From Zymomonas mobilis subsp. mobilis ATCC 10988 (lineage in GTDB: Bacteria; Pseudomonadota; Alphaproteobacteria; Sphingomonadales; Sphingomonadaceae): a stretch of 32,000 nucleotides of DNA. Both the position numbers and the translations under genes were made by a program. Below the pieces are notes generated by a model. The model ran no database searches, was not told the DNA's origin, and worked only from the letters and a program-made list of their open reading frames with translations. Numbering within the stretch: position 1 is the first letter of the stretch; every line of letters starts with the position of its first letter. The DNA is taken from assembly GCF_000175255.2 (NCBI RefSeq), contig NC_017262.1:720001-752000 (forward strand). Reading direction: 5' to 3'. Shown piece after piece: positions 1-21,205 of the stretch.

Positions 1-146
1 AGACGGGTGAAGCAAGTCAACTCAAAGCACAGAGAATGAAAAACCAAACTTCTCTATTATTCCCATCGCAAAAAGAGACCAGTTCAGCAGAATAACGCCT
101 ATTTACAGGTAAAAAGCCCTTCCAAAGCATTTTTTACCGAGTCTTT

Positions 147-545
147 TTAACCGCAGGTTGAAGGTAATGCGATCGGGCCATTTTTTTTCTGCCACTTCCC
201 ATCGGTCAAAGCATAAAATTGACCATCTTGGACGCGACTGGCCAATGTTTTACATCCGACAGCGACAGCCCATTCTTCGACAGTAACCCCACGTTTAGCG
301 GCTTCTGCGGTATAGGCAGCACGTCTTCTAATATTCAAAGCATCAACAGCTGTTTTGACCGGCGGCGGTGGTGTTTGGGCAAAGCCCATATAGCCATCAA
401 TCTTTTCACCAATCACGCCGTTAGCTATGGCTGATTGTAAAATATCATCACCGCCTTGAGCAAAAGAAGGCACGGCTAAGGATAGCCCCATAACAAGAGC
501 CGCACGGACAATAGCTTTGGGCCATTTCATTTTTACGTTGGTCAT
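147..545 (-). CDS. ydbL: YdbL-like periplasmic protein (DUF1318 family)
   Basis: 132-aa ORF with an N-terminal signal peptide (...LSLAVPSFAQG). The body (GVIGEKIDGYMGF...ALNIRRRAAYTAEAAKRGVTVEE...DGKWQKK) fits the YdbL/DUF1318 pattern as I remember it. Its ATG overlaps the ynbE stop (ATGA at 542-545). It is the third gene of the conserved ydbH-ynbE-ydbL order. The true start could be the internal Met at 530. Confidence 0.75.
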   Translation of the reverse strand: MTNVKMKWPKAIVRAALVMGLSLAVPSFAQGGDDILQSAIANGVIGEKIDGYMGFAQTPPPPVKTAVDALNIRRRAAYTAEAAKRGVTVEEWAVAVGCKTLASRVQDGQFYALTDGKWQKKNGPIALPSTCG

Positions 546-742
546 TGTGGGAATAACTCCGGATTATTTTGAATAAAGTCGCCAGCATCTTTTTGAAGAT
601 GAACGACAACCTCCTGCCGGACATTGACATTAAGATTTATCTCAATCGGTTTGTCAGGTGCCTTAACCGAGATACAGCCCCCTACCATCAGCAAGCTGGC
701 GAAAAGAAGGCTCTTCTCTATTACTCCGGTCTTCTGCCTCAT
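542..742 (-). CDS. ynbE: YnbE-like small outer-membrane lipoprotein
   Basis: 66-aa ORF with a lipobox (LLMVGG|C) followed by a short beta-rich mature part (ISVKAPDKPIEINLNVNV...). It sits between the ydbH-like and ydbL-like genes and is translationally coupled to ydbL. Confidence 0.7.
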   Translation of the reverse strand: MRQKTGVIEKSLLFASLLMVGGCISVKAPDKPIEINLNVNVRQEVVVHLQKDAGDFIQNNPELFPQ

Positions 743-796
743 ATATAATCCTAATAGATGGTTACTAATATAGACTCTTTTTCTTCATTTTTAAGG

Positions 797-3700
797 TTAG
801 AAGGCGCCTTCAGTAGCCAGCTCTGACTGATTAAGAACTGAACGAGGATTGTTATAAGAGCGCATCGCGTTCAGTAATCCACGGAAAGGTGCCTTTACTT
901 GGACATTGAAATGGAAAGGTACTTTTTCAATCTCACGCGCCAAATAAGAACGATCGGCTTTCGTCTCGACTTCTCGAACACCGCCAAATTGAATGGAACT
1001 AACAAAATCGCCGTCAAGGCTACCATTCAAAAGAACATCTAAGCGTTGATAGCGGACCCCCTTCAAAACATCAAAAGCCACCTTACCTAACATTCCCTGA
1101 TGAGCATTAGAGACTGGGCCAACATAACTCACAACCCCACCAGGTTTACGGCTGGCCAGACGGCCGCCTTCGATTTTGCCACTATTGGCGCTAAATTCGA
1201 TCGGTAAAATTCCATCGAAACGACCACTAACAAATATATTTTTTAACTGGAGATTCTCGACCAACGGGGCACTATCCATATCCGATACATGGAAAACAAC
1301 TTTATGGGAGCCTGTATGCCCAAAATCGAGGACAGAACCATCCAATGTCAAATGACCATCAAAGAAAGGCCAATCGCCTTTTTCAACAACGACCACCCTA
1401 TTGGGTAAAAGCTGATACCGTATCTGTCCGCTTTTGATAGCTAAACCAGCATTGATCTCATCGACGGTTGCCAGCTGATTGGGGGGCGTTTTCAAATTCA
1501 AAAGATCAGAAAAAGCGACCTTCCCTTTAAAGCCTGAAACCGTGCCAAAGGCCGCCGCGAAATCGAGACCGTTAGTAACAAACTGTCCCGTGCTAACAAC
1601 GTTCTTTCTCTTCCAGTCAATTCTACCTTGGCCAGATAAACTTCCCTTCACATCCGCAAAAATACCCAAGGTTAAAGGCGTAATTTGTTCTGGTTGCAGG
1701 CTTTTATTAAACGACACATTATTGACGTGGAATAAAACATGACCACGGCTATCACCAAAATGATGCTCAATCCTTGTATCTAAAAGATGGATAGTCCGGA
1801 TGTCCAAAGGACGGTCTATACCCGCTGTAATATGGACACGATCTTTATTGATTTGCATCAACAAGTCTTGCGACCGTACCGGTAAAAAACGAGGCGAGGC
1901 TTGATCTGCATCGGCAATATCTACAGCACCATGCAAAACAATATCGGTATTATCGGTTGCCTTCTCGCCGCCCTTATTCTGCCATTCCCAATGAGCAGCA
2001 CCATTACTAAACAAAAAAGGTGCGAGACTGAAACGTCCTGACATACCAGTCAGGTCACCTTCACCATCCATTCCATCAAGATTAGCGGTTAAGTGGTCAA
2101 TTGACAGCTGGGTATCAGGGTCTCCATCATCCCCCTTTTGATTAAATTGTAATCCACTTAATTCCGCATAATGGCGGGCAAGGAAAAAAGAAGACGTCTT
2201 CACATGAAGATTGAAAGGCTGGTTGTTAATTACCCCTGCAATCGTTGGATTATCAAGACGTGCACCGCCCTCTGTTAAATGACCATTATCGACTCTTAAG
2301 AATGACTTTTCGATAGGACAAAGCGGCAAAACGATTTTTTGAGCGGTTACACCTGACATAACCAATTTTTCAGCCCGCAGGTTAAAACAACTGCGGTTAA
2401 TGGCAATTTTGTCTTTCTCTCCTTCAATATCGACAGGGAAAATTAAAGATTTGACCTGCCCATCCGCTCCGATAGGCCCCGATATATCAGCTTGAGTTTT
2501 CAATAAGAAATGCTGTTTTTCATATAAAAAGCTGACGGGCGCTAAAGCAATCGAAGCCGTATTGTTACGATAAGGCTCAATCTTAGCCTCTCCTTTAACA
2601 CCATAATCCCCTAACTGTGCCAGATGGATTTCAACGTTTGGGAATCCGTCTCCTTTTAAAGAAAAATCACCCCCAAAATGCCATGTTTTCTGCTGTTTTT
2701 CTTGCCACTGAGCGAGGCCAGAAAATTGTATTTTTTGCCCAGATACACCAGTCAAAACTGCTTTTCTTAAGGTCGCAGTCAAATGGCCTTGTTTATTATC
2801 AACAGCGATTTCGGTATCTGCAGAGATATTTCCTGCCAGCGTGGTTAAATTTTGCCGCAACTGTTGGACTAAAGACGATATAGGTGTGTCATCAGGCACA
2901 GTCAGGCTAGAAAAATCTGTTTTCAGCCGTGCATTTGCCAAAGAAAATCGCATATTTGCCGAAAGAGGATCGCCTTTTTTAGGCTCAGAAAAATAGCTAA
3001 ACGGCAAATCGAAAGAGCTGGCAACATGCCAATTTCCGCCAGAAATAAAATCTATCTGCTCTTTACCAGAAAAGTCCATCTGTCCTTTTGCTGTTTGGAA
3101 ATCACCTTTTGCGGTAACTTTCCCATTTACACCCGATAATTGCCACGGCGCATTTCCTGAAGAAGCTATCTCTGGCGTTGATATAGAGGCTTCCCCCTGC
3201 CAGCTATCCAAAGCTTTATTTAAAGAAGCATCAACCGAACCTTTCAGCTTTTCCAGCTTCATCTCGCCATTCTGACAGCGAATCGCTTCAGCCGAAGCCG
3301 GTCCTTGAAAATAAGGTCTCCCATGCGAGACCGATGTTTTCAGAAAGAAATGACCATTCTCTACTTGGCAAGTGTCAGATGCAAAATGAGGAATAGATAC
3401 AGCCAGATTCCCTTGGAACCCATTAGCAAGATTACCACTACCATCAGCAGCCATACCAATAACGCCATATTCGGTTTTTAATTTCAGGCGAGCATCTTTC
3501 AGATCAACATCCAAAGCGGGTAGCCCAGAAGCATTACCACTTGTTGCCATATAACTTTTCAAAGAATCGAGATTACCGAAATCAAAACCTTTTTCATCCA
3601 AGCGTCCATAAATCCGGAGCTTATCAAATTGGACAGAGGAAATGGCAAAACCATGCCATAAAGGCTTGAGATGGATAACGACATGATCCGCCGTAAGATC

Positions 3701-15330: not shown

Positions 15331-15452
15331 CAAAGTTAAAATAAAAACGCGCGTTGTTCTTTCTGCTACGCCTCTCGAAAGCGGATATATCAAGACATCA
15401 AATTTCACCGATCAAACTTGACAGTGAAAAGGCAGCAAGTCATCCCCAACAA

Positions 15453-16907
15453 ATGCTATTGCCGAAACAAGCCACTGCGCGCCTTCGCCTTTCCTTTTCC
15501 CGTCATAAAGTGATTGGAGCTATTGCGCTTCCCGCCATTGTCACCAATATCGCAACCGCTTTGTTTGGTCTGGCGGATATCTGGGCGATAGGCCGCTTGG
15601 GCGATCCTCAAGCGCAAGGCGGTGTCGAAATCGGGGCAAAATTATTAACCACCCTCTGTGTGCTTTTTAATTTTTTACGATCAGGAACAACCGCTTTGAC
15701 GGCTCAAGCCGCCGGAAGACAGAATACAACCCAAGCCAGCCACAGCGCCGCTTTGTCAGAAGCACAATGGCAAGAAGCAGGGTTACGCCACCCCGCGAAT
15801 ATAGAAGCCAGCCATGAAACCGAACAAACGCTTATTCGAGCCGTTTCCCTTGCCTTAGGACTCGGACTTTTATTGCTACTTTTCAAAACTTTTATCATTC
15901 CCTTCGGGCTATCTTTAATGAATGCCTCTGGCGGGATTAGAGAGCAGGCCGCTTCCTATGTTTGTCTCCGTTACTGGATTGTGCCCCTCATCCTTGCCAA
16001 TATGGCTTTAAGTGCATGGCTGATCGGGATGCGGTCAATGCGTCTGGTTCTGGCTATCGAGGTTGCCAGTAATTTTTTTCATATTTCAATGGATTGCCTC
16101 TTTGTCTTGTTGCTAAAGCAAGGGGTAAATGGGGTCGCCCATGCCTCGATTATCTCTGAAATCTTTTCAACTCTGTTGCTACTGGCGGCTGTCACCCGTT
16201 ACGCTTCGCCTCAGCTATTATGTCGGCTGGGTTTTCATCGCCTGACTTGGCAAAAAGAAACCATCTACAGCTTGTTCAGCCTCAATCGCGATCTGTTCAT
16301 ACGCACTTTACTGTTAATGACGGCTATTATTTTCTTTACTCGGATGAGTGTCCAGCAAGGCGCTATCTTGCTTGCGGCCAATGCCATTATCAATCAACTT
16401 TTTTCGCTCGCAACGCTGATTTTGGATGGCTACGAAAGTTCGGCACAAATATTATGTGGTGAGGCCGCTGGCGCAAAAGATCACACGCGTTTCTCTCAAT
16501 TAATGCGCGCTACTTTATTTCAGGCGTTTCTAGTCGCCACTTTATTAGCACTTATCTACGGATTTTCGGGTTCATTACTGGTCAAATCTTTCACGACAGA
16601 TTCAATCGTTGCCCAAGCCGCCGGAAATTTATCTATTTGGTTGGTTGTTCTGCCCCTTGTTGGAGTCAGCTCCTATGTAATGGATGGCGTTTTTGTTGGT
16701 GCTGGATGGAGCAAAGCTATGATGGGTAGTATGGCTATTGCGCTTTTGCTCTTCATGATTAGCCTGTTTTTTTTCAAAGCTTGGGGAAATAATGGCTTAT
16801 GGTTATCCTTTAGCCTCTTTCTCTTTTATCGCAGTAGTGCTCAACTTATTCTTTTACCATTCATGGAAAAAAGACAATTTTACGCTAATAAAGATTTAAA
16901 ACATTAA
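15453..16907 (+). CDS. MATE family efflux transporter (DinF-like)
   Basis: It is polytopic with about 12 hydrophobic segments and has a MATE-like N-terminus (IGAIALPAIVTNIATALFGLADIWAIGRLG). I prefer the ATG at 15453 (484 aa). The 33 extra residues from the ORF-track TTG start at 15354 look non-coding. Confidence 0.85.
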   Translation: MLLPKQATARLRLSFSRHKVIGAIALPAIVTNIATALFGLADIWAIGRLGDPQAQGGVEIGAKLLTTLCVLFNFLRSGTTALTAQAAGRQNTTQASHSAALSEAQWQEAGLRHPANIEASHETEQTLIRAVSLALGLGLLLLLFKTFIIPFGLSLMNASGGIREQAASYVCLRYWIVPLILANMALSAWLIGMRSMRLVLAIEVASNFFHISMDCLFVLLLKQGVNGVAHASIISEIFSTLLLLAAVTRYASPQLLCRLGFHRLTWQKETIYSLFSLNRDLFIRTLLLMTAIIFFTRMSVQQGAILLAANAIINQLFSLATLILDGYESSAQILCGEAAGAKDHTRFSQLMRATLFQAFLVATLLALIYGFSGSLLVKSFTTDSIVAQAAGNLSIWLVVLPLVGVSSYVMDGVFVGAGWSKAMMGSMAIALLLFMISLFFFKAWGNNGLWLSFSLFLFYRSSAQLILLPFMEKRQFYANKDLKH

Positions 16908-17212
16908 AATAAATTTTTATATTTAAATATATTTTCAATCTATACTTAAAATTTCAACAATAAAAATATAAAAATTATTACTTTTTTAAAAATTTTGGTT
17001 TTTATGAATAAATATAAAATAAATTTTTACATAAAAACCTTAATTTATTTGAAGAAACAGATGAAAACATCCCCATGTAATTAAAATTATCTTATATATT
17101 TCACCATTATAGAGCAAAAATAAATTCGAATATCTTAAAAAAACTTTTAAAAATTCTAAAATTCCTCCCGTTACTATAAAATTATAGTTAAATTATAAAA
17201 TTTGGGGGGAGT

Positions 17213-20200
17213 ATGATAAATTTAAGACGGATTATAACCCGTTTTTTTCTAGCGAGTTGTGTTTTCTACCCACATGCTTTGCATGCAACTGAAATACCGC
17301 TCGATATTATCAATGAAGTAGAAGACGGATTTTCTTTTACCCGCTTAGGCATCAATGCCGGTGTTAATAACGGAGACCCAAAAGAATATCTTTTCGATAC
17401 CGGCTCGGATTCCTTTAATATTGCAGTCGGCATGAATAACAGTGGCACGATGCCCAGCTGGTTTCCACAAACCGGTACCGCCGTATCCAGTCCTTACGGC
17501 TATATGTATGGCGATGGCACTTATGGCTATCTGCAATCCGATACATCGGTTTCAAATATCCAATTTTATAACAGCACAACAGGCAGCAAAATAGCCAATT
17601 ATGACACCTCAGCAGGTCTAGGTGTCGCTCTTATTCAAGCCTCTATTGCTACCGAGAACCGATTAAATCCTAACGACATCGGGCAACAGATTTCACCCGA
17701 CACGGCAGGATTGGATCCTTCACAGGCCTATTATCAAGATTTGTCATGGCAACAATCACTGGACGCTGGGAAAGCGCCTGATGAAAATCATTTCTATGGG
17801 ATTATGGGTGCTGGTGATTTCATTTATCGCGGTGATAATGGTGGCGTTCCCGGCCAACTTACAAAAAGCGGCTATATTGTCGAAGCCAATGGCACCACAA
17901 CAACCCCGGGGGATTGCGGAGCAAGCTGTCTTATCGTTGGATTAACACCTGCCTTAAGAGCGCAATTCTTCACCCAAGTGCCTTGGCGGGGCATCATCGG
18001 CAGCTTTCCGTTATCGGGAGCCAACGCCGGACGGCAATTTGATGCAATGTTCCAATATGCGCTTGATAACGGACAAAATACCAAAGGGATGCCGACCCTG
18101 CTGGATTCCGGAACACCAATGATTATCGTCGGCTCAAATGATTTACTGGGTCAGGCGATTGATGCAGGCGCAACAGGCAGCGATGGCTATATCAACGATG
18201 TTGACCCCGGTCATATATTAAACATTACCGGCAATGTCCCGAATGGTCAGACAGTTTCGGTTGTCACCGGTGATGGTTCCCAAGGCGATCAAACCAATGT
18301 CCTCACATTGGGCAGCAATATCTACACACCCAAGAATTACACCTTGGAAGGCGTTTCTTTCTTCTTACAAAATGCCGTGATGTATGATCTGGAAAATGCC
18401 GTAACAGGCTATACGCCTTTTTACGTATCGGATTATAATTTCACCAATGGGCTAGATGTCTCTTCTGACATGGGGGCATTGGGACTGGCCGGGGTCATCT
18501 CTGGCAGTAAAGATGTGAATATCCATGAGGGCGGTATCGCCTATCTGACCAATAACAACAGCTATACCGGTGCCACCAATATCGCTGAAAAAGGCTGGTT
18601 AGGTATTGGCGGTACGGGCAGCATATCCCAATCGGCGGTTGTTAATGTCGCGGGAAGTTTCGATATCGCTCATTCTGAAACCGGACAGAATATCCGCTCT
18701 TTATCTGGCAGCGGACAAGTCGTCTTAGGCGATAACACCCTATTGCTTAGTCAGGCACAAGATACCTTCTCCGGTTCTATTCGCGATGATTATGCCGAAG
18801 GCTCAACCCGTGCCGCGATGGTGCCGGTGCCTATTTTAACAGGCGGCGAAAACCAGACTCATGGTGGTGTTATCATTGGCGGCGGCCAAGAAATCTTCTC
18901 CGGCAATAACAGCTACAGCGGAAAAACCGGCGTGGCAGCGGCTGCCCAACTCATCTTGACAGGAAGATTGGACAAATCGCAGGTAGAAAATGCAGGCCGT
19001 TTTGAAAATAACGGCGAAACAACAGCCATTGTCAATTCAACCGGCATTGTCAGTGGTAACGGGCTTTTTGCTGGCGGTTTGACTGTAAAGCAAGGGATTG
19101 TCACACCGGGTGCCGTGCTCAACAATGGCGGCGGCAATATGCATGTTTCACACAATTTAGTGTTGGATAGTGCCGCGACCTATCTCACCCAAATAGGCAG
19201 CAATAGCGCCAGTATGATTGCTGTAGAGGGCAAGGCCGAAATCAATAACGCCACTCTTGTCAGCTTAGCCACTTCCGAAGCGGGGCGACCAAAATTAGGA
19301 CAAAATTATACGATTTTGACCGCCTCGGACGGCATATCCGGTCAATTTGGAGCTGTCAAAAGCGACCTGACTGGCAATGCCCTTTACCCCTTCCTGACAA
19401 CCGGCGTTGATTACCAGAGCAATATTGTCTCTCTTGAAATCGAACGAAGCAATATCGCTTTTACGAATGCCGCCCAAAGCCGAAATGAACGAAATGTTGC
19501 AACAGTACTTGATGCGATGTCCCCGACTTCCAGCTTGGCTCTACCGGTAACGCTACTTGATTTTGCAGCGGCACGGAATGCTTTCAATAGCCTGTCTGGT
19601 GAAATTCACGCCTCGGCAAGAACAGCGCTTATTCAAAATGCCACCGAGATCAGGGATATGGCCATCAACCGGATGCGGGCAGCCGACTGTATTCCTGGGG
19701 CATCCACTGAAAAAACTGCCAATCGGGATGGCCAATCTACAGGAGCGACCTGCGACAGCGATCAAGGCCAAACACTTTGGATGCAATCCTACGGCAATTG
19801 GAGCCATAACAGCCACAGCGCCAATGCCGCTGGAATGAGTAATTCCGTCGGCGGCTTTGTTCTCGGTGGTGAAACCTCGCTTATCCCGAATTGGCATATC
19901 GGTGGCTTGGTTGGCTACGGTCATTCCGGCTTTTCTGTCTCCGAACGGGCTTCATCCGGCCACAGCAATAACGTTACCTTGGGTGGCTATGCCAATACTC
20001 ATTGGGATCGTCTTGGCTTAAGAATGGGCGCAACCTACACATGGGATAGATTAGCAACCCGTCGGAAAGTGCTTTACGCTGATTTTACCGATCAACAAAG
20101 CAGTCGCTATAATGGCGGCACCGTGCAGGCCTTTGCGGATATCGGCTATCGCTTTGACATTGGTCGGGTCATGGTCGAACCTTTTGGAAATGCCGCCTAT

Positions 20201-20593
20201 ATCAACCAGCATACCAATGCTTTCCGTGAATCAGGCGGCGCAGCGGCGCTCTCTGGCCATGCTTTAAGCAGCAATATGGCCTATGCGACTTTCGGTTCCC
20301 GACTGGCTTCCCGCGTAACGCTTGGGAAATCGACTGTCCTGACACCCAATGCCACAATCGGTTATCGCCATGCCTTCGGGACAATCACATCTTCCATCAA
20401 AGAAAATTTTCTTAATCAAACGGCGGACTTCAATGTTTCGGGTGTGCCTTTGGCTGAAAATTCGGCGATGGTCAGCGTCGGCCTACAAGCCCAAGTCAAA
20501 AATCGCCTACAGCTAGGCCTTAGCTATAGCGGCCAATATAGCGCGCATTATTCTTCAAGCGGCCTCAAAGGTAATATTTCATGGATCTTCTGA
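17213..20593 (+). CDS. autotransporter outer-membrane protein with a pepsin-like (A1 aspartic protease-like) passenger domain
   Basis: A strong GGGGGGAG Shine-Dalgarno precedes the start, and there is a signal peptide (...YPHALHA|TEIP). Residues ~30-410 carry the DTGS and DSGT motifs plus flap and C-terminal A1 motifs. Residues ~430-830 hold PATR-type repeats (NNSYTGATNI, NNSYSGKTGV). The C-terminal ~280 aa look like a beta-barrel translocator ending ...GNISWIF. Confidence 0.9.
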   Translation: MINLRRIITRFFLASCVFYPHALHATEIPLDIINEVEDGFSFTRLGINAGVNNGDPKEYLFDTGSDSFNIAVGMNNSGTMPSWFPQTGTAVSSPYGYMYGDGTYGYLQSDTSVSNIQFYNSTTGSKIANYDTSAGLGVALIQASIATENRLNPNDIGQQISPDTAGLDPSQAYYQDLSWQQSLDAGKAPDENHFYGIMGAGDFIYRGDNGGVPGQLTKSGYIVEANGTTTTPGDCGASCLIVGLTPALRAQFFTQVPWRGIIGSFPLSGANAGRQFDAMFQYALDNGQNTKGMPTLLDSGTPMIIVGSNDLLGQAIDAGATGSDGYINDVDPGHILNITGNVPNGQTVSVVTGDGSQGDQTNVLTLGSNIYTPKNYTLEGVSFFLQNAVMYDLENAVTGYTPFYVSDYNFTNGLDVSSDMGALGLAGVISGSKDVNIHEGGIAYLTNNNSYTGATNIAEKGWLGIGGTGSISQSAVVNVAGSFDIAHSETGQNIRSLSGSGQVVLGDNTLLLSQAQDTFSGSIRDDYAEGSTRAAMVPVPILTGGENQTHGGVIIGGGQEIFSGNNSYSGKTGVAAAAQLILTGRLDKSQVENAGRFENNGETTAIVNSTGIVSGNGLFAGGLTVKQGIVTPGAVLNNGGGNMHVSHNLVLDSAATYLTQIGSNSASMIAVEGKAEINNATLVSLATSEAGRPKLGQNYTILTASDGISGQFGAVKSDLTGNALYPFLTTGVDYQSNIVSLEIERSNIAFTNAAQSRNERNVATVLDAMSPTSSLALPVTLLDFAAARNAFNSLSGEIHASARTALIQNATEIRDMAINRMRAADCIPGASTEKTANRDGQSTGATCDSDQGQTLWMQSYGNWSHNSHSANAAGMSNSVGGFVLGGETSLIPNWHIGGLVGYGHSGFSVSERASSGHSNNVTLGGYANTHWDRLGLRMGATYTWDRLATRRKVLYADFTDQQSSRYNGGTVQAFADIGYRFDIGRVMVEPFGNAAYINQHTNAFRESGGAAALSGHALSSNMAYATFGSRLASRVTLGKSTVLTPNATIGYRHAFGTITSSIKENFLNQTADFNVSGVPLAENSAMVSVGLQAQVKNRLQLGLSYSGQYSAHYSSSGLKGNISWIF

Positions 20594-20636
20594 TTCAATC
20601 ATTTTTCTCCGACCAAACTTCCTCGTAATCTCTTCA

Positions 20637-20669
20637 AGGCGTTACCTTCAAAAGTAACGCCTTTTTTTT
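20637..20669 (+). terminator. Rho-independent terminator of the autotransporter gene
   Basis: A 9-bp stem AGGCGTTAC/GTAACGCCT (20637-20645 and 20654-20662) with an 8-nt loop is followed by a T8 run. Confidence 0.8.
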
Positions 20670-20761: not shown

Positions 20762-20896
20762 CGGCTGATAGCCGATTCAACATATTGACTCACGACTCAC
20801 TTTAGACTAGCAGAGCACACTTAAACCGGCATGTGTGGGTTAACCACGCATGATCCGATCTGTTTATTTCATGCCTTTGAAGAAGTGATAAAAGCC

Positions 20897-21205
20897 ATGT
20901 TCGCTATCGTGCGCACCGGCGGGAAGCAATACCGCGTCGCCGCTGGAGACAAAATTGTTGTCGAAAAAATCGCCGGCGAGGCGGGAACGACAGTTTCGCT
21001 TGAAGATGTCCTGCTTGCCGGTGAGGGTGCTGATCTCCAGCCCGTCAAAGGTTTGACGGTTTCAGCCGAGATCATTGCTCAGGCTAAGGCGGAAAAAGTC
21101 ATCGTCTTCAAGAAACGTCGCCGCCATAACTACCGTCGCCGTAACGGCCACCGTCAGCAGCATACAATCCTCAAGATTGTATCAGTCGGTAACGCCGCTG
21201 CTTAA
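20897..21205 (+). CDS. rplU: 50S ribosomal protein L21
   Basis: It has the canonical L21 N-terminus, [14 protein letters not shown], from the ATG at 20897. The ORF-track start at 20831 adds 22 non-homologous residues. Confidence 0.95.

Follow-up and report, generated by a model that had tools for sequence, protein, structure and literature searches.

We analyzed a 32,000-nucleotide stretch of Zymomonas mobilis subsp. mobilis ATCC 10988 DNA (contig NC_017262.1, positions 720,001 to 752,000 of the forward strand; this whole stretch is termed the window, and its first letter is position 1). The window carries an autotransporter gene, the product of which is 100% identical to Z. mobilis AEH62470.1/WP_014500624.1 (P0169). 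The results below indicate that this protein is probably a type Va autotransporter that displays or releases a prosegment-free aspartic endopeptidase of the pepsin fold. An earlier note, drawn from the letters of this DNA, had proposed a pepsin-like (family A1) aspartic protease as the passenger of the autotransporter, and all the motifs that it quoted were found at the residues and nucleotides given there. The coordinates of the features are collected in Table 1.

The N-terminal head of the protein was modeled with AlphaFold2 (AF2). With an alignment of 99 sequences the model reached a predicted local distance difference test (pLDDT) score of 93.7 and a predicted template modelling (pTM) score of 0.93; all five models scored at least 93, and no segment fell below 50. 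An earlier AF2 model from 17 sequences (pLDDT 68.6, pTM 0.71) matched A1 aspartic proteinases only. When the final model was compared with the PDB by Foldseek, 545 matches were obtained at an expectation value (E) ≤1e-3, the best at 2.8e-11. The best 50 of these 545 matches were all pepsin-fold proteins, with alignments of 410–430 columns spanning both lobes. Among them were the enzymes Rhizomucor proteinase (2.8e-11), Sapp1, Sapp2, tick cathepsin D, plasmepsin II, rhizopuspepsin, penicillopepsin, chymosin, renin, saccharopepsin and porcine pepsin (3pep, 2e-9), and the same 50 included two non-enzymatic seed globulins, basic 7S globulin (3aup) and conglutin gamma (4pph).

In the model, both catalytic Asp residues lie at the C-terminal ends of strands with pLDDT of at least 97, as would be expected of psi-loops; D62 is at the end of model strand 31–36, in a block with pLDDT of ∼98. 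The predicted topology is the bilobal pepsin topology of clan AA, so that the bilobal head of the earlier reading was recovered. The fold begins at residue 28 (IPL…), and its first strand would form the N-terminus of the mature protein. Because the fold starts directly after the predicted signal-peptide cleavage site, the head appears to have no prosegment. The conserved domain of the homologues likewise starts directly after the equivalent cleavage sites, at an invariant IPL motif.

A word-indexed search returned 16 relatives at 26–50% identity, in which D62-T-G-S-D, Y99, D298 and G300 are invariant. With a trimmed 15-sequence profile, an exhaustive hidden Markov model search gave 325 matches at E ≤1e-3, each representing a 50%-identity cluster; 176 of these reached E ≤1e-10. 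Conservation was counted in 120 non-redundant family members at 21–50% identity. In the first motif, D62 is kept in 119/120, T63 in 120/120, G64 in 119/120 and S65 in 111/120; in the second, D298 is kept in 120/120, Thr or Ser at position 299 in 118/120, G300 in 120/120 and T301 in 75/120 (Ala in 15). Each lobe carries one conserved catalytic Asp within a D-T/S-G-T/S motif, as in clan AA, and the claim that both catalytic aspartates are intact holds across the family. The candidate flap residue Y99 is present in 114/120 members (Phe in 3 more), and G100 in 82/120. Tyr99 lies 37 residues past D62, compared with 43 in pepsin; in bacterial pepsin homologues the spacing to the flap Tyr is 32 residues (PMC2761423, Table 2).

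The hydrophobic-hydrophobic-Gly element, as defined in PMC2761423, was found in both lobes at the family level. In the N-lobe, G196 is kept in 119/120 and G199 in 120/120 members, with a hydrophobic residue (Phe, Met or Leu) at position 198; in the C-lobe, G380 is kept in 118/120, and the family consensus ahead of it is Ile, Leu or Val. Overall, the catalytic and psi-loop residues are 92–100% conserved. Motifs that are near-invariant over such a set lie beyond chance. The two head cysteines are less constant (C235 80/120, C239 75/120), and roughly two thirds of the family members have the pair. The ratio of nonsynonymous to synonymous substitution rates (dN/dS) of the head, measured against the Z. 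mobilis AN0101 orthologue, is ∼0.04, the lowest among the segments of the gene, and only approximate because dS is near saturation.

A head that shares the pepsin fold and is inert has to be weighed at this point. Such a head would be a binding, adhesin or inhibitor module, comparable to the TAXI-I xylanase inhibitor, basic 7S globulin and conglutin gamma, and the last two (3aup and 4pph) are among the Foldseek matches. Many autotransporters are adhesins, and the orthologue of strain ZM4 (AAV88837.2) is annotated as 'AIDA autotransporter-like protein ShdA'. Basic 7S globulin, conglutin gamma and the TAXI-type inhibitors have the pepsin fold in common with the head; the catalytic signature is lost in these proteins, whereas it is near-invariant in the present family. 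The pepsin-fold domain of PE_PGRS16 keeps DTG and DSG and showed no activity in vitro, although its paralogue PecA is active (cited in PMC6819658). In contrast, 95–100% of the 120 members retain the two Asp residues with the T/S-G that follows each, as well as the flap Tyr and the psi-loop Gly, which is an enzyme-like pattern, and dN/dS of the head is the lowest in the gene. We favor an enzyme over an inert binder because both D[TS]G motifs, the flap Tyr and the psi-loop Gly are near-invariant at such low identity, and the strong purifying selection supports the enzyme further. An inert head is, in our judgment, decidedly improbable.

Sequence comparison with the known aspartic protease families gave a fainter signal. 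In Pfam, the full protein matched only PF03797 at E ≤10, and neither PF00026 nor the TAXi domains (PF14543/PF14541) were detected. The isolated head (residues 27–431) matched nothing in Pfam at E ≤10 and nothing in NCBIfam, and this domain is not described by any model of Pfam (2025) or NCBIfam (June 2026). When the head was compared with the PDB by phmmer, only Na+/H+ exchangers were returned, at E 0.2 or worse, and these were rejected as spurious. The result of an untrimmed family profile was dominated by the stalk. The trimmed 15-sequence profile matched three PDB sequences at E ≤10, all of them A1 (candidapepsin-5 at E 0.028 and plasmepsin V at 0.5–0.8), and a 40-sequence profile did no better. 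In the alignment with candidapepsin-5 and plasmepsin V, DSGT fell on DSGT, and G-x-x-FF-x-x-N-A-V-M-Y-D-L-E-N fell on ILGDNFLRSAYVVYNLDD.

By hhalign, D298 was placed on pepsin D215 (of D215-T-G-T) and G380 on pepsin G302, with E ∼0.04 and a probability of ∼1%, over the C-terminal segment only. The hhalign targets were a single porcine pepsin sequence and then a profile of 109 pepsin A orthologues only, which is narrow for A1. The porcine pepsin query itself matched PDB 1f34 over its full length with 720 bits.

The missing Pfam and NCBIfam matches and the weak profile-to-PDB values would fit a resemblance of motifs by coincidence, the N-terminal region being merely a divergent beta-rich passenger. 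The earlier note had named the lack of a profile match together with a non-pepsin fold as grounds for abandoning its proposal; the first was observed, but the second was not. The model is of high confidence, and its best 50 of 545 PDB matches are all pepsin-fold proteins aligned over both lobes. The matches of the trimmed profile at E ≤10 are exclusively A1 and in register, and distant members of the family match PE-PGRS_C, PecA and Asp. A coincidence is effectively refuted by these data.

The matches of the distant members were as follows. P0127 matched PE-PGRS_C (PF20729) at E 6.4e-7 (29.4 bits vs. a cutoff of 33; positions 12–255 of 265), and P0122 matched it at E 1e-5 (25.5 bits, below the cutoff). 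Distant members matched the PecA model NF038019 at E 9.3e-6 (25.1 bits vs. a cutoff of 150), and P0160 matched PF00026 at E 0.011 (15.6 bits vs. a cutoff of 19.9). The window protein had no match with the PE-PGRS_C and PecA profiles. Matches to XDP1, PepA and other PEP-CTERM-family models of NCBIfam were set aside, since they concern only the C-terminal sorting tail and not the protease-like domain. The strict family A1 label proposed earlier was not established by sequence: with no PF00026 or TAXi match at E ≤10 and with E values of 0.03–0.8 to A1 structures, the head is not filed as an A1 member. The PE-PGRS_C and PecA cutoffs were not reached either, and the protein lacks a PE domain, carrying instead a Sec-type signal peptide at one end and an autotransporter barrel at the other. 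By sequence, the head is better described as a distinct, unnamed pepsin-fold family, for which the nearest curated neighbors are PE-PGRS_C/PecA and Asp, all at sub-threshold scores.

The head and the pepsins of family A1 have in common the predicted bilobal fold, a D-T/S-G-S/T motif at a strand end in each lobe, a Tyr-Gly flap candidate, a hydrophobic-hydrophobic-Gly element per lobe, a C-terminal motif that aligns with ILGDxFxxxxYxVFD, and secretion. In contrast to the pepsins, the head has no significant profile match, lacks the three pepsin disulfides and the prosegment, is bacterial, has ∼45 extra residues in the N-lobe, carries a CxxxC pair elsewhere, and is fused to a stalk and a barrel.

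Bacterial pepsin homologues are regarded as rare and intracellular (PMC2761423). The earlier note had also called them rare, but it overlooked PecA, a mycobacterial surface-located pepsin-fold protease that cleaves itself and processes surface proteins (PMC6819658), and that is the sole surface-located bacterial example in the literature searched. The PecA/PE-PGRS_C proteins (PE_PGRS35, PE_PGRS16, structure 4EHC, and PE26) share with the present head a bacterial cell-surface pepsin-fold module, with DTG and DSG, borne on a secretion-system substrate. PecA, however, is exported by a type VII system and is built of an N-terminal PE domain, a PGRS linker and a C-terminal protease domain, whereas the present head is N-terminal and would be exported by the type Va route or, in relatives, by a PEP-CTERM/exosortase route.

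Shewasins A and D and their relatives are, like the head, bacterial bilobal aspartic peptidases without a prosegment (PMC2761423, PMC4814920). Homologues of the shewasin type are recognizable as A1 by sequence, lack a signal peptide, and have an intracellular location, whether predicted or shown (PMC2761423, PMC4814920). The position of pepsin Thr218 is Ala in most of them, and they occur in a few marine Gammaproteobacteria and in Sinorhizobium (PMC2761423). The present family differs from them in that it is predicted to be exported, most of its members keep Thr at the Thr218 position, and its divergence is much greater.

The C-terminal part of the protein places it among the type Va autotransporters. 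PF03797 matched residues 855–1106 (E 7.6e-60, profile positions 1–255 of 255), and the TIGR01414 barrel model matched at E 1.8e-44 (152.5 bits vs. a cutoff of 16). Together with the Sec-type signal peptide, read from sequence and predicted from its basic n-region, its hydrophobic core and an A-x-A-like LHA, and with the C-terminal aromatic residue (…SWIF), these are the classical type Va features, and the barrel ending in F that had been claimed was confirmed. The PATR-type repeats claimed for the stalk gave a weak signal in this protein, with TIGR02601 at E 0.0086 (15.9 bits, below the cutoff of 19.85) and no match with Pfam PATR (PF12951); in the homologues they are clear, PATR being detected in 16/55 and TIGR02601 in 20/55. 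When the stalk and barrel were compared with the PDB by phmmer, nothing was found at E ≤1e-3. A Cys pair (C826 and C847, 21 residues apart; nt ∼19688–19753) lies in the linker just ahead of the barrel.

The EprS autotransporter model NF051851 matched residues 525–1126 (window 18785–20590) with its positions 431–988, at E 5.9e-69 and 233 bits, the cutoff being 1700. The region that corresponds to the S8 domain of EprS was unmatched, and no S8 domain was detected with Pfam or NCBIfam, so that neither the S8 domain nor the full-length match of an EprS member is present. From the match of stalk and barrel we conclude that the scaffold is of the subtilase-autotransporter type, and the sequence suggests that a head domain was swapped on an EprS-like scaffold. 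The subtilase-type autotransporters (EprS, NF051851; fusolisin, NF033865) and the SPATE proteins (S6) begin with a protease head, which is followed by a beta-helical stalk and a PF03797 barrel, and the present protein, with its presumed beta-helical stalk, appears to have the same order of parts. The heads of EprS and SPATE proteins are serine proteases (S8 or S6), whereas the present head is predicted to be aspartic, and the N-terminal 430 positions of the EprS model are unmatched here. One homologue (P0003) was named 'subtilase-type serine protease' by JGI; with the EprS match, this name suggests a source of misannotation.

In the mechanism that we propose, the Sec signal peptide (residues 1–25) would bring the unfolded precursor to the periplasm, the C-terminal 12-strand barrel (855–1126) would enter the outer membrane, and the stalk (∼413–854), followed by the N-terminal head (27–412), would emerge and fold outside the cell. 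D62 (DTGS) and D298 (DSGT), one per lobe at the base of the cleft, would activate water for peptide-bond hydrolysis, and the Tyr99 flap would close over the substrate as in pepsin. The mature N-terminus would be the first strand of the fold, with no zymogen prosegment; premature activity would be avoided because the head folds only after export. The pepsin disulfides are missing and only the Cys235-x3-Cys239 pair is left, which would fit translocation of the passenger. The likeliest role would be to cleave proteins on the cell surface or in the surrounding medium in an acid habitat, with possible uses in peptide or amino-acid acquisition or in the trimming of surface or foreign proteins.

An active pepsin-fold protease could also be a dedicated surface-maturation enzyme or sheddase that cleaves itself and/or other surface proteins. 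Its scaffold is of the EprS-like subtilase-autotransporter type, and the subtilase autotransporters NalP and SphB1 process other autotransporters. The nearest sequence neighbors of the family are PE-PGRS_C/PecA, and PecA, as described above, is surface-located, self-cleaving and a processor of surface proteins such as the PE_PGRS proteins (PMC6819658). The head is also found on PEP-CTERM tails, that is, on other surface-anchoring systems. However, in a comparison of 15 loci no conserved neighbor gene was found outside Zymomonas, so that no conserved partner or substrate gene adjoins in different genera, and nothing in the sequence separates a narrow from a broad specificity. We consider such a dedicated role possible, if unlikely, beside the surface-displayed or released endopeptidase that we prefer.

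The family is not restricted to autotransporters. Many members are 1100–1200 residues long and many others 340–450; in a sample of 55, PF03797 was detected in 21, PATR in 16 and a PEP-CTERM tail in 10. The full autotransporter architecture (1070–1200 residues, both D[TS]G motifs and an aromatic C-terminus) was found in more than 30 species, in the genera Zymomonas, Acetobacter, Neokomagataea, Dyella, Rhodanobacter and Fulvimonas, by a species-level genome scan that is pattern-limited and reaches close relatives only. Six members of ∼360–430 residues (P0117, P0103, P0080, P0158, P0160 and P0060) consist of a head-type domain and a terminal PEP-CTERM signal. Judged by this signal, the PEP-CTERM members would be exosortase-dependent surface proteins, which would give the domain a second export route. 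In long multidomain proteins the domain is internal or C-terminal (P0114, 1823 residues, domain at 813–1163; P0073, P0131, P0141 and P0140); the matched region of P0140 is ∼506 residues long and may hold more than one copy of the domain.

Several homologous ORFs (open reading frames) are cut down (624 and 388 residues) or lack the aromatic end, namely those of Acetobacter persici (L005), A. malorum (L006), Dyella silvatica (L011) and D. acidiphila (L031); pseudogene formation, a frameshift or an assembly error may account for this in some species. Two 1097-residue copies (L019 and L020) are present on different contigs of Rhodanobacteraceae bacterium ZG21-1, and one copy is carried by the 371-kb plasmid unnamed1 of Dyella sp. 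20L07 (L016). The two-copy genome and the plasmid copy hint at mobility or duplication of the gene.

An acid optimum of the head is plausible, because Thr301, which corresponds to pepsin Thr218, is kept, because the close subfamily occurs in acid-tolerant genera, and because the habitat of Z. mobilis is acidic plant sap or fermenting juice. Going by their names and reputation, many of the carrier genera are acid-tolerant or acidophilic. The habitat guessed in the earlier note, that of an acid-tolerant organism of plant sap or fermenting juice, agrees with the identity of the organism, Zymomonas mobilis. Replacement of Thr218 by Ala has been linked to neutral pH optima (PMC2761423).

Several observations weigh against an acid-active, pepsin-like enzyme. 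The template modelling (TM) scores were 0.40–0.59 (∼0.5; target-normalised up to 0.59) and the root-mean-square deviation was 7–10 Å, so that the fold is shared but strongly diverged. The spacing between D62 and Gly199 is 137 residues, compared with 90 in pepsin (∼45 extra residues). The hydrophobic-hydrophobic-Gly element of the C-lobe reads L-E-G in this protein, and the residue after Gly380 is Val, Leu or Ile, where pepsin has Asp303. No curated Pfam or NCBIfam profile recognizes the head at E ≤10, and in direct sequence comparison with A1 it reaches only marginal E values (0.03–0.8). The inactive PE_PGRS16 domain means that retention of the motifs is no proof of catalysis. Finally, the link to acid habitats derives from the pattern-limited scan of close relatives, and the wider family occurs in non-acidophiles, among them Labrys, Amaricoccus, Phyllobacterium and Inquilinus, and in ordinary soil Alphaproteobacteria.

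To our knowledge, the characterized autotransporter proteases are serine enzymes, and autotransporter heads of various enzymatic kinds are known. In a full-text search for an autotransporter with a pepsin-like, aspartic or aspartyl protease head, no description was found; the coverage was incomplete, and an earlier description is possible. To this extent the earlier note, which was aware of no described A1 autotransporter, was borne out. The search returned only papers on other topics, which dealt with the retropepsin-like APRc, which processes rickettsial autotransporters and is not itself one, and with RapL. The literature on a Zymomonas autotransporter or on ShdA yielded nothing about this gene. 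In the literature searched we found no type Va autotransporter that bears a pepsin-fold protease, an arrangement of two parts that are both of known kinds. A conserved exported family in Proteobacteria would add the aspartic class to the protease heads of type V systems, and would offer a self-exporting, prosegment-free bacterial aspartic protease that is experimentally easy.

With the family, many sequences that could inform the origin of the pepsin fold would also become available. We hold it rather doubtful, though worth stating, that these proteins form a large bacterial lineage, ancient and as yet without a name, whose members are exported peptidases of the bilobal pepsin fold (∼325 clusters), related to PecA and to eukaryotic A1, and carried to the outside by type Va systems, PEP-CTERM/exosortase and multidomain proteins. 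If a phylogeny placed this lineage outside and basal to A1, the pepsin lobe duplication would be bacterial, and the secreted pepsins would have originated in bacteria, not in eukaryotes followed by a few rare transfers. The question of origin was left open by Rawlings and Bateman, 2009 (PMC2761423).

For the organism itself, an industrial ethanologen, a surface acid protease, if true, would matter for how nitrogen from plant-derived feedstocks is used and for how stable heterologous enzymes are when displayed or secreted, and it could serve as a native autodisplay scaffold. The head also points to a gap in annotation, since it lies outside all Pfam and NCBIfam models. The database name of WP_014500624.1 is only "autotransporter domain-containing protein". 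Orthologues of other strains bear this name, 'outer membrane autotransporter barrel domain protein', or the ShdA name of ZM4, and none of the annotated Z. mobilis orthologues is annotated as a protease.

Table 1. Features of the autotransporter gene and its flanks (window coordinates; residues of the 1126-residue protein)
Feature	Nucleotides	Residues	Strand	Remarks
Upstream intergenic region	16908–17212		+	305 bp, very AT-rich, GC 0.19–0.28
Shine-Dalgarno-like G-rich run GGGGGGAG	17204–17211		+	Immediately 5′ of ATG
Autotransporter ORF	17213–20593	1–1126	+	1126 residues, intact
Sec-type signal peptide MINLRRIITRFFLASCVFYPHALHA	17213–17287	1–25	+	Predicted cleavage before T26; read from sequence
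Pepsin-fold bilobal passenger head	17291–18448	27–412	+	From AF2 model and Foldseek; predicted without prosegment
YLFDTGSDSF	17387–17416	59–68	+	
First catalytic motif D62-T-G-S	17396–17407		+	N-lobe psi-loop; D62 = GAT at 17396–17398
MYGDGTYGYLQSDTSV (MYGDGTYGY…)		98–113	+	
Candidate flap Tyr99-Gly100	17507–17512		+	Proposed counterpart of pepsin Tyr75-Gly76, by position and conservation
FYGIMGAG	17792–17815	194–201	+	N-lobe hydrophobic-hydrophobic-Gly element with Gly199
Cys235-x3-Cys239 pair	17915–17929		+	Sole cysteines of the head domain
CLIVGLTPAL		239–248	+	
QVPW		255–258	+	
Second catalytic motif D298-S-G-T	18104–18115		+	C-lobe psi-loop; within TLLDSGTPMIIVG, residues 295–307
C-lobe Gly380, then FFLQNAVMYDLENAVTGYTP (residues 383–402)	18350–18418		+	Aligns in register with candidapepsin-5, plasmepsin V and pepsin
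Passenger stalk and linker	18449–19774	413–854	+	Presumed beta-helix, PATR-like repeats
Type Va autotransporter beta-barrel	19775–20593	855–1126	+	Ends …NISWIF; includes stop codon
Terminator-like hairpin and T-run	20636–20663		+	10-bp stem, 5 GC pairs, then TTTTTTT; 43 nt past the stop codon

The AT-rich intergenic region separates a MATE-like transporter ORF (15354–16907) from the autotransporter gene. Matches to sigma-70-like hexamers were found in it (e.g., 17135–17162), but the promoter scan gave 9 sites vs. 8.0 expected, which is not above shuffled sequence, and an upstream promoter is therefore not demonstrated. With its AT-rich upstream region, Shine-Dalgarno-like run and 3′ hairpin, the gene looks like a self-contained unit. 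Recent horizontal transfer was rejected on composition, since the coding GC of 0.43–0.53 matches that of the surrounding DNA, and AT-richness is confined to the upstream intergenic region.

An antisense ORF (19553–19924, minus strand, 123 residues) within the barrel-coding region is almost certainly no gene; its 'homologues' in Acetobacter loci arise because it overlaps conserved autotransporter DNA. The ORF at 20831–21205, 3′ of the terminator-like hairpin, resembles ribosomal protein L21; its mechanical start adds 23 upstream residues, and the true start is probably an internal Met. Further downstream, the segment 28001–30000 of the window has a GC of 0.355, compared with ∼0.45–0.51 in the adjoining 2-kb bins, and may be an island, an AT-rich intergenic region or a foreign segment.

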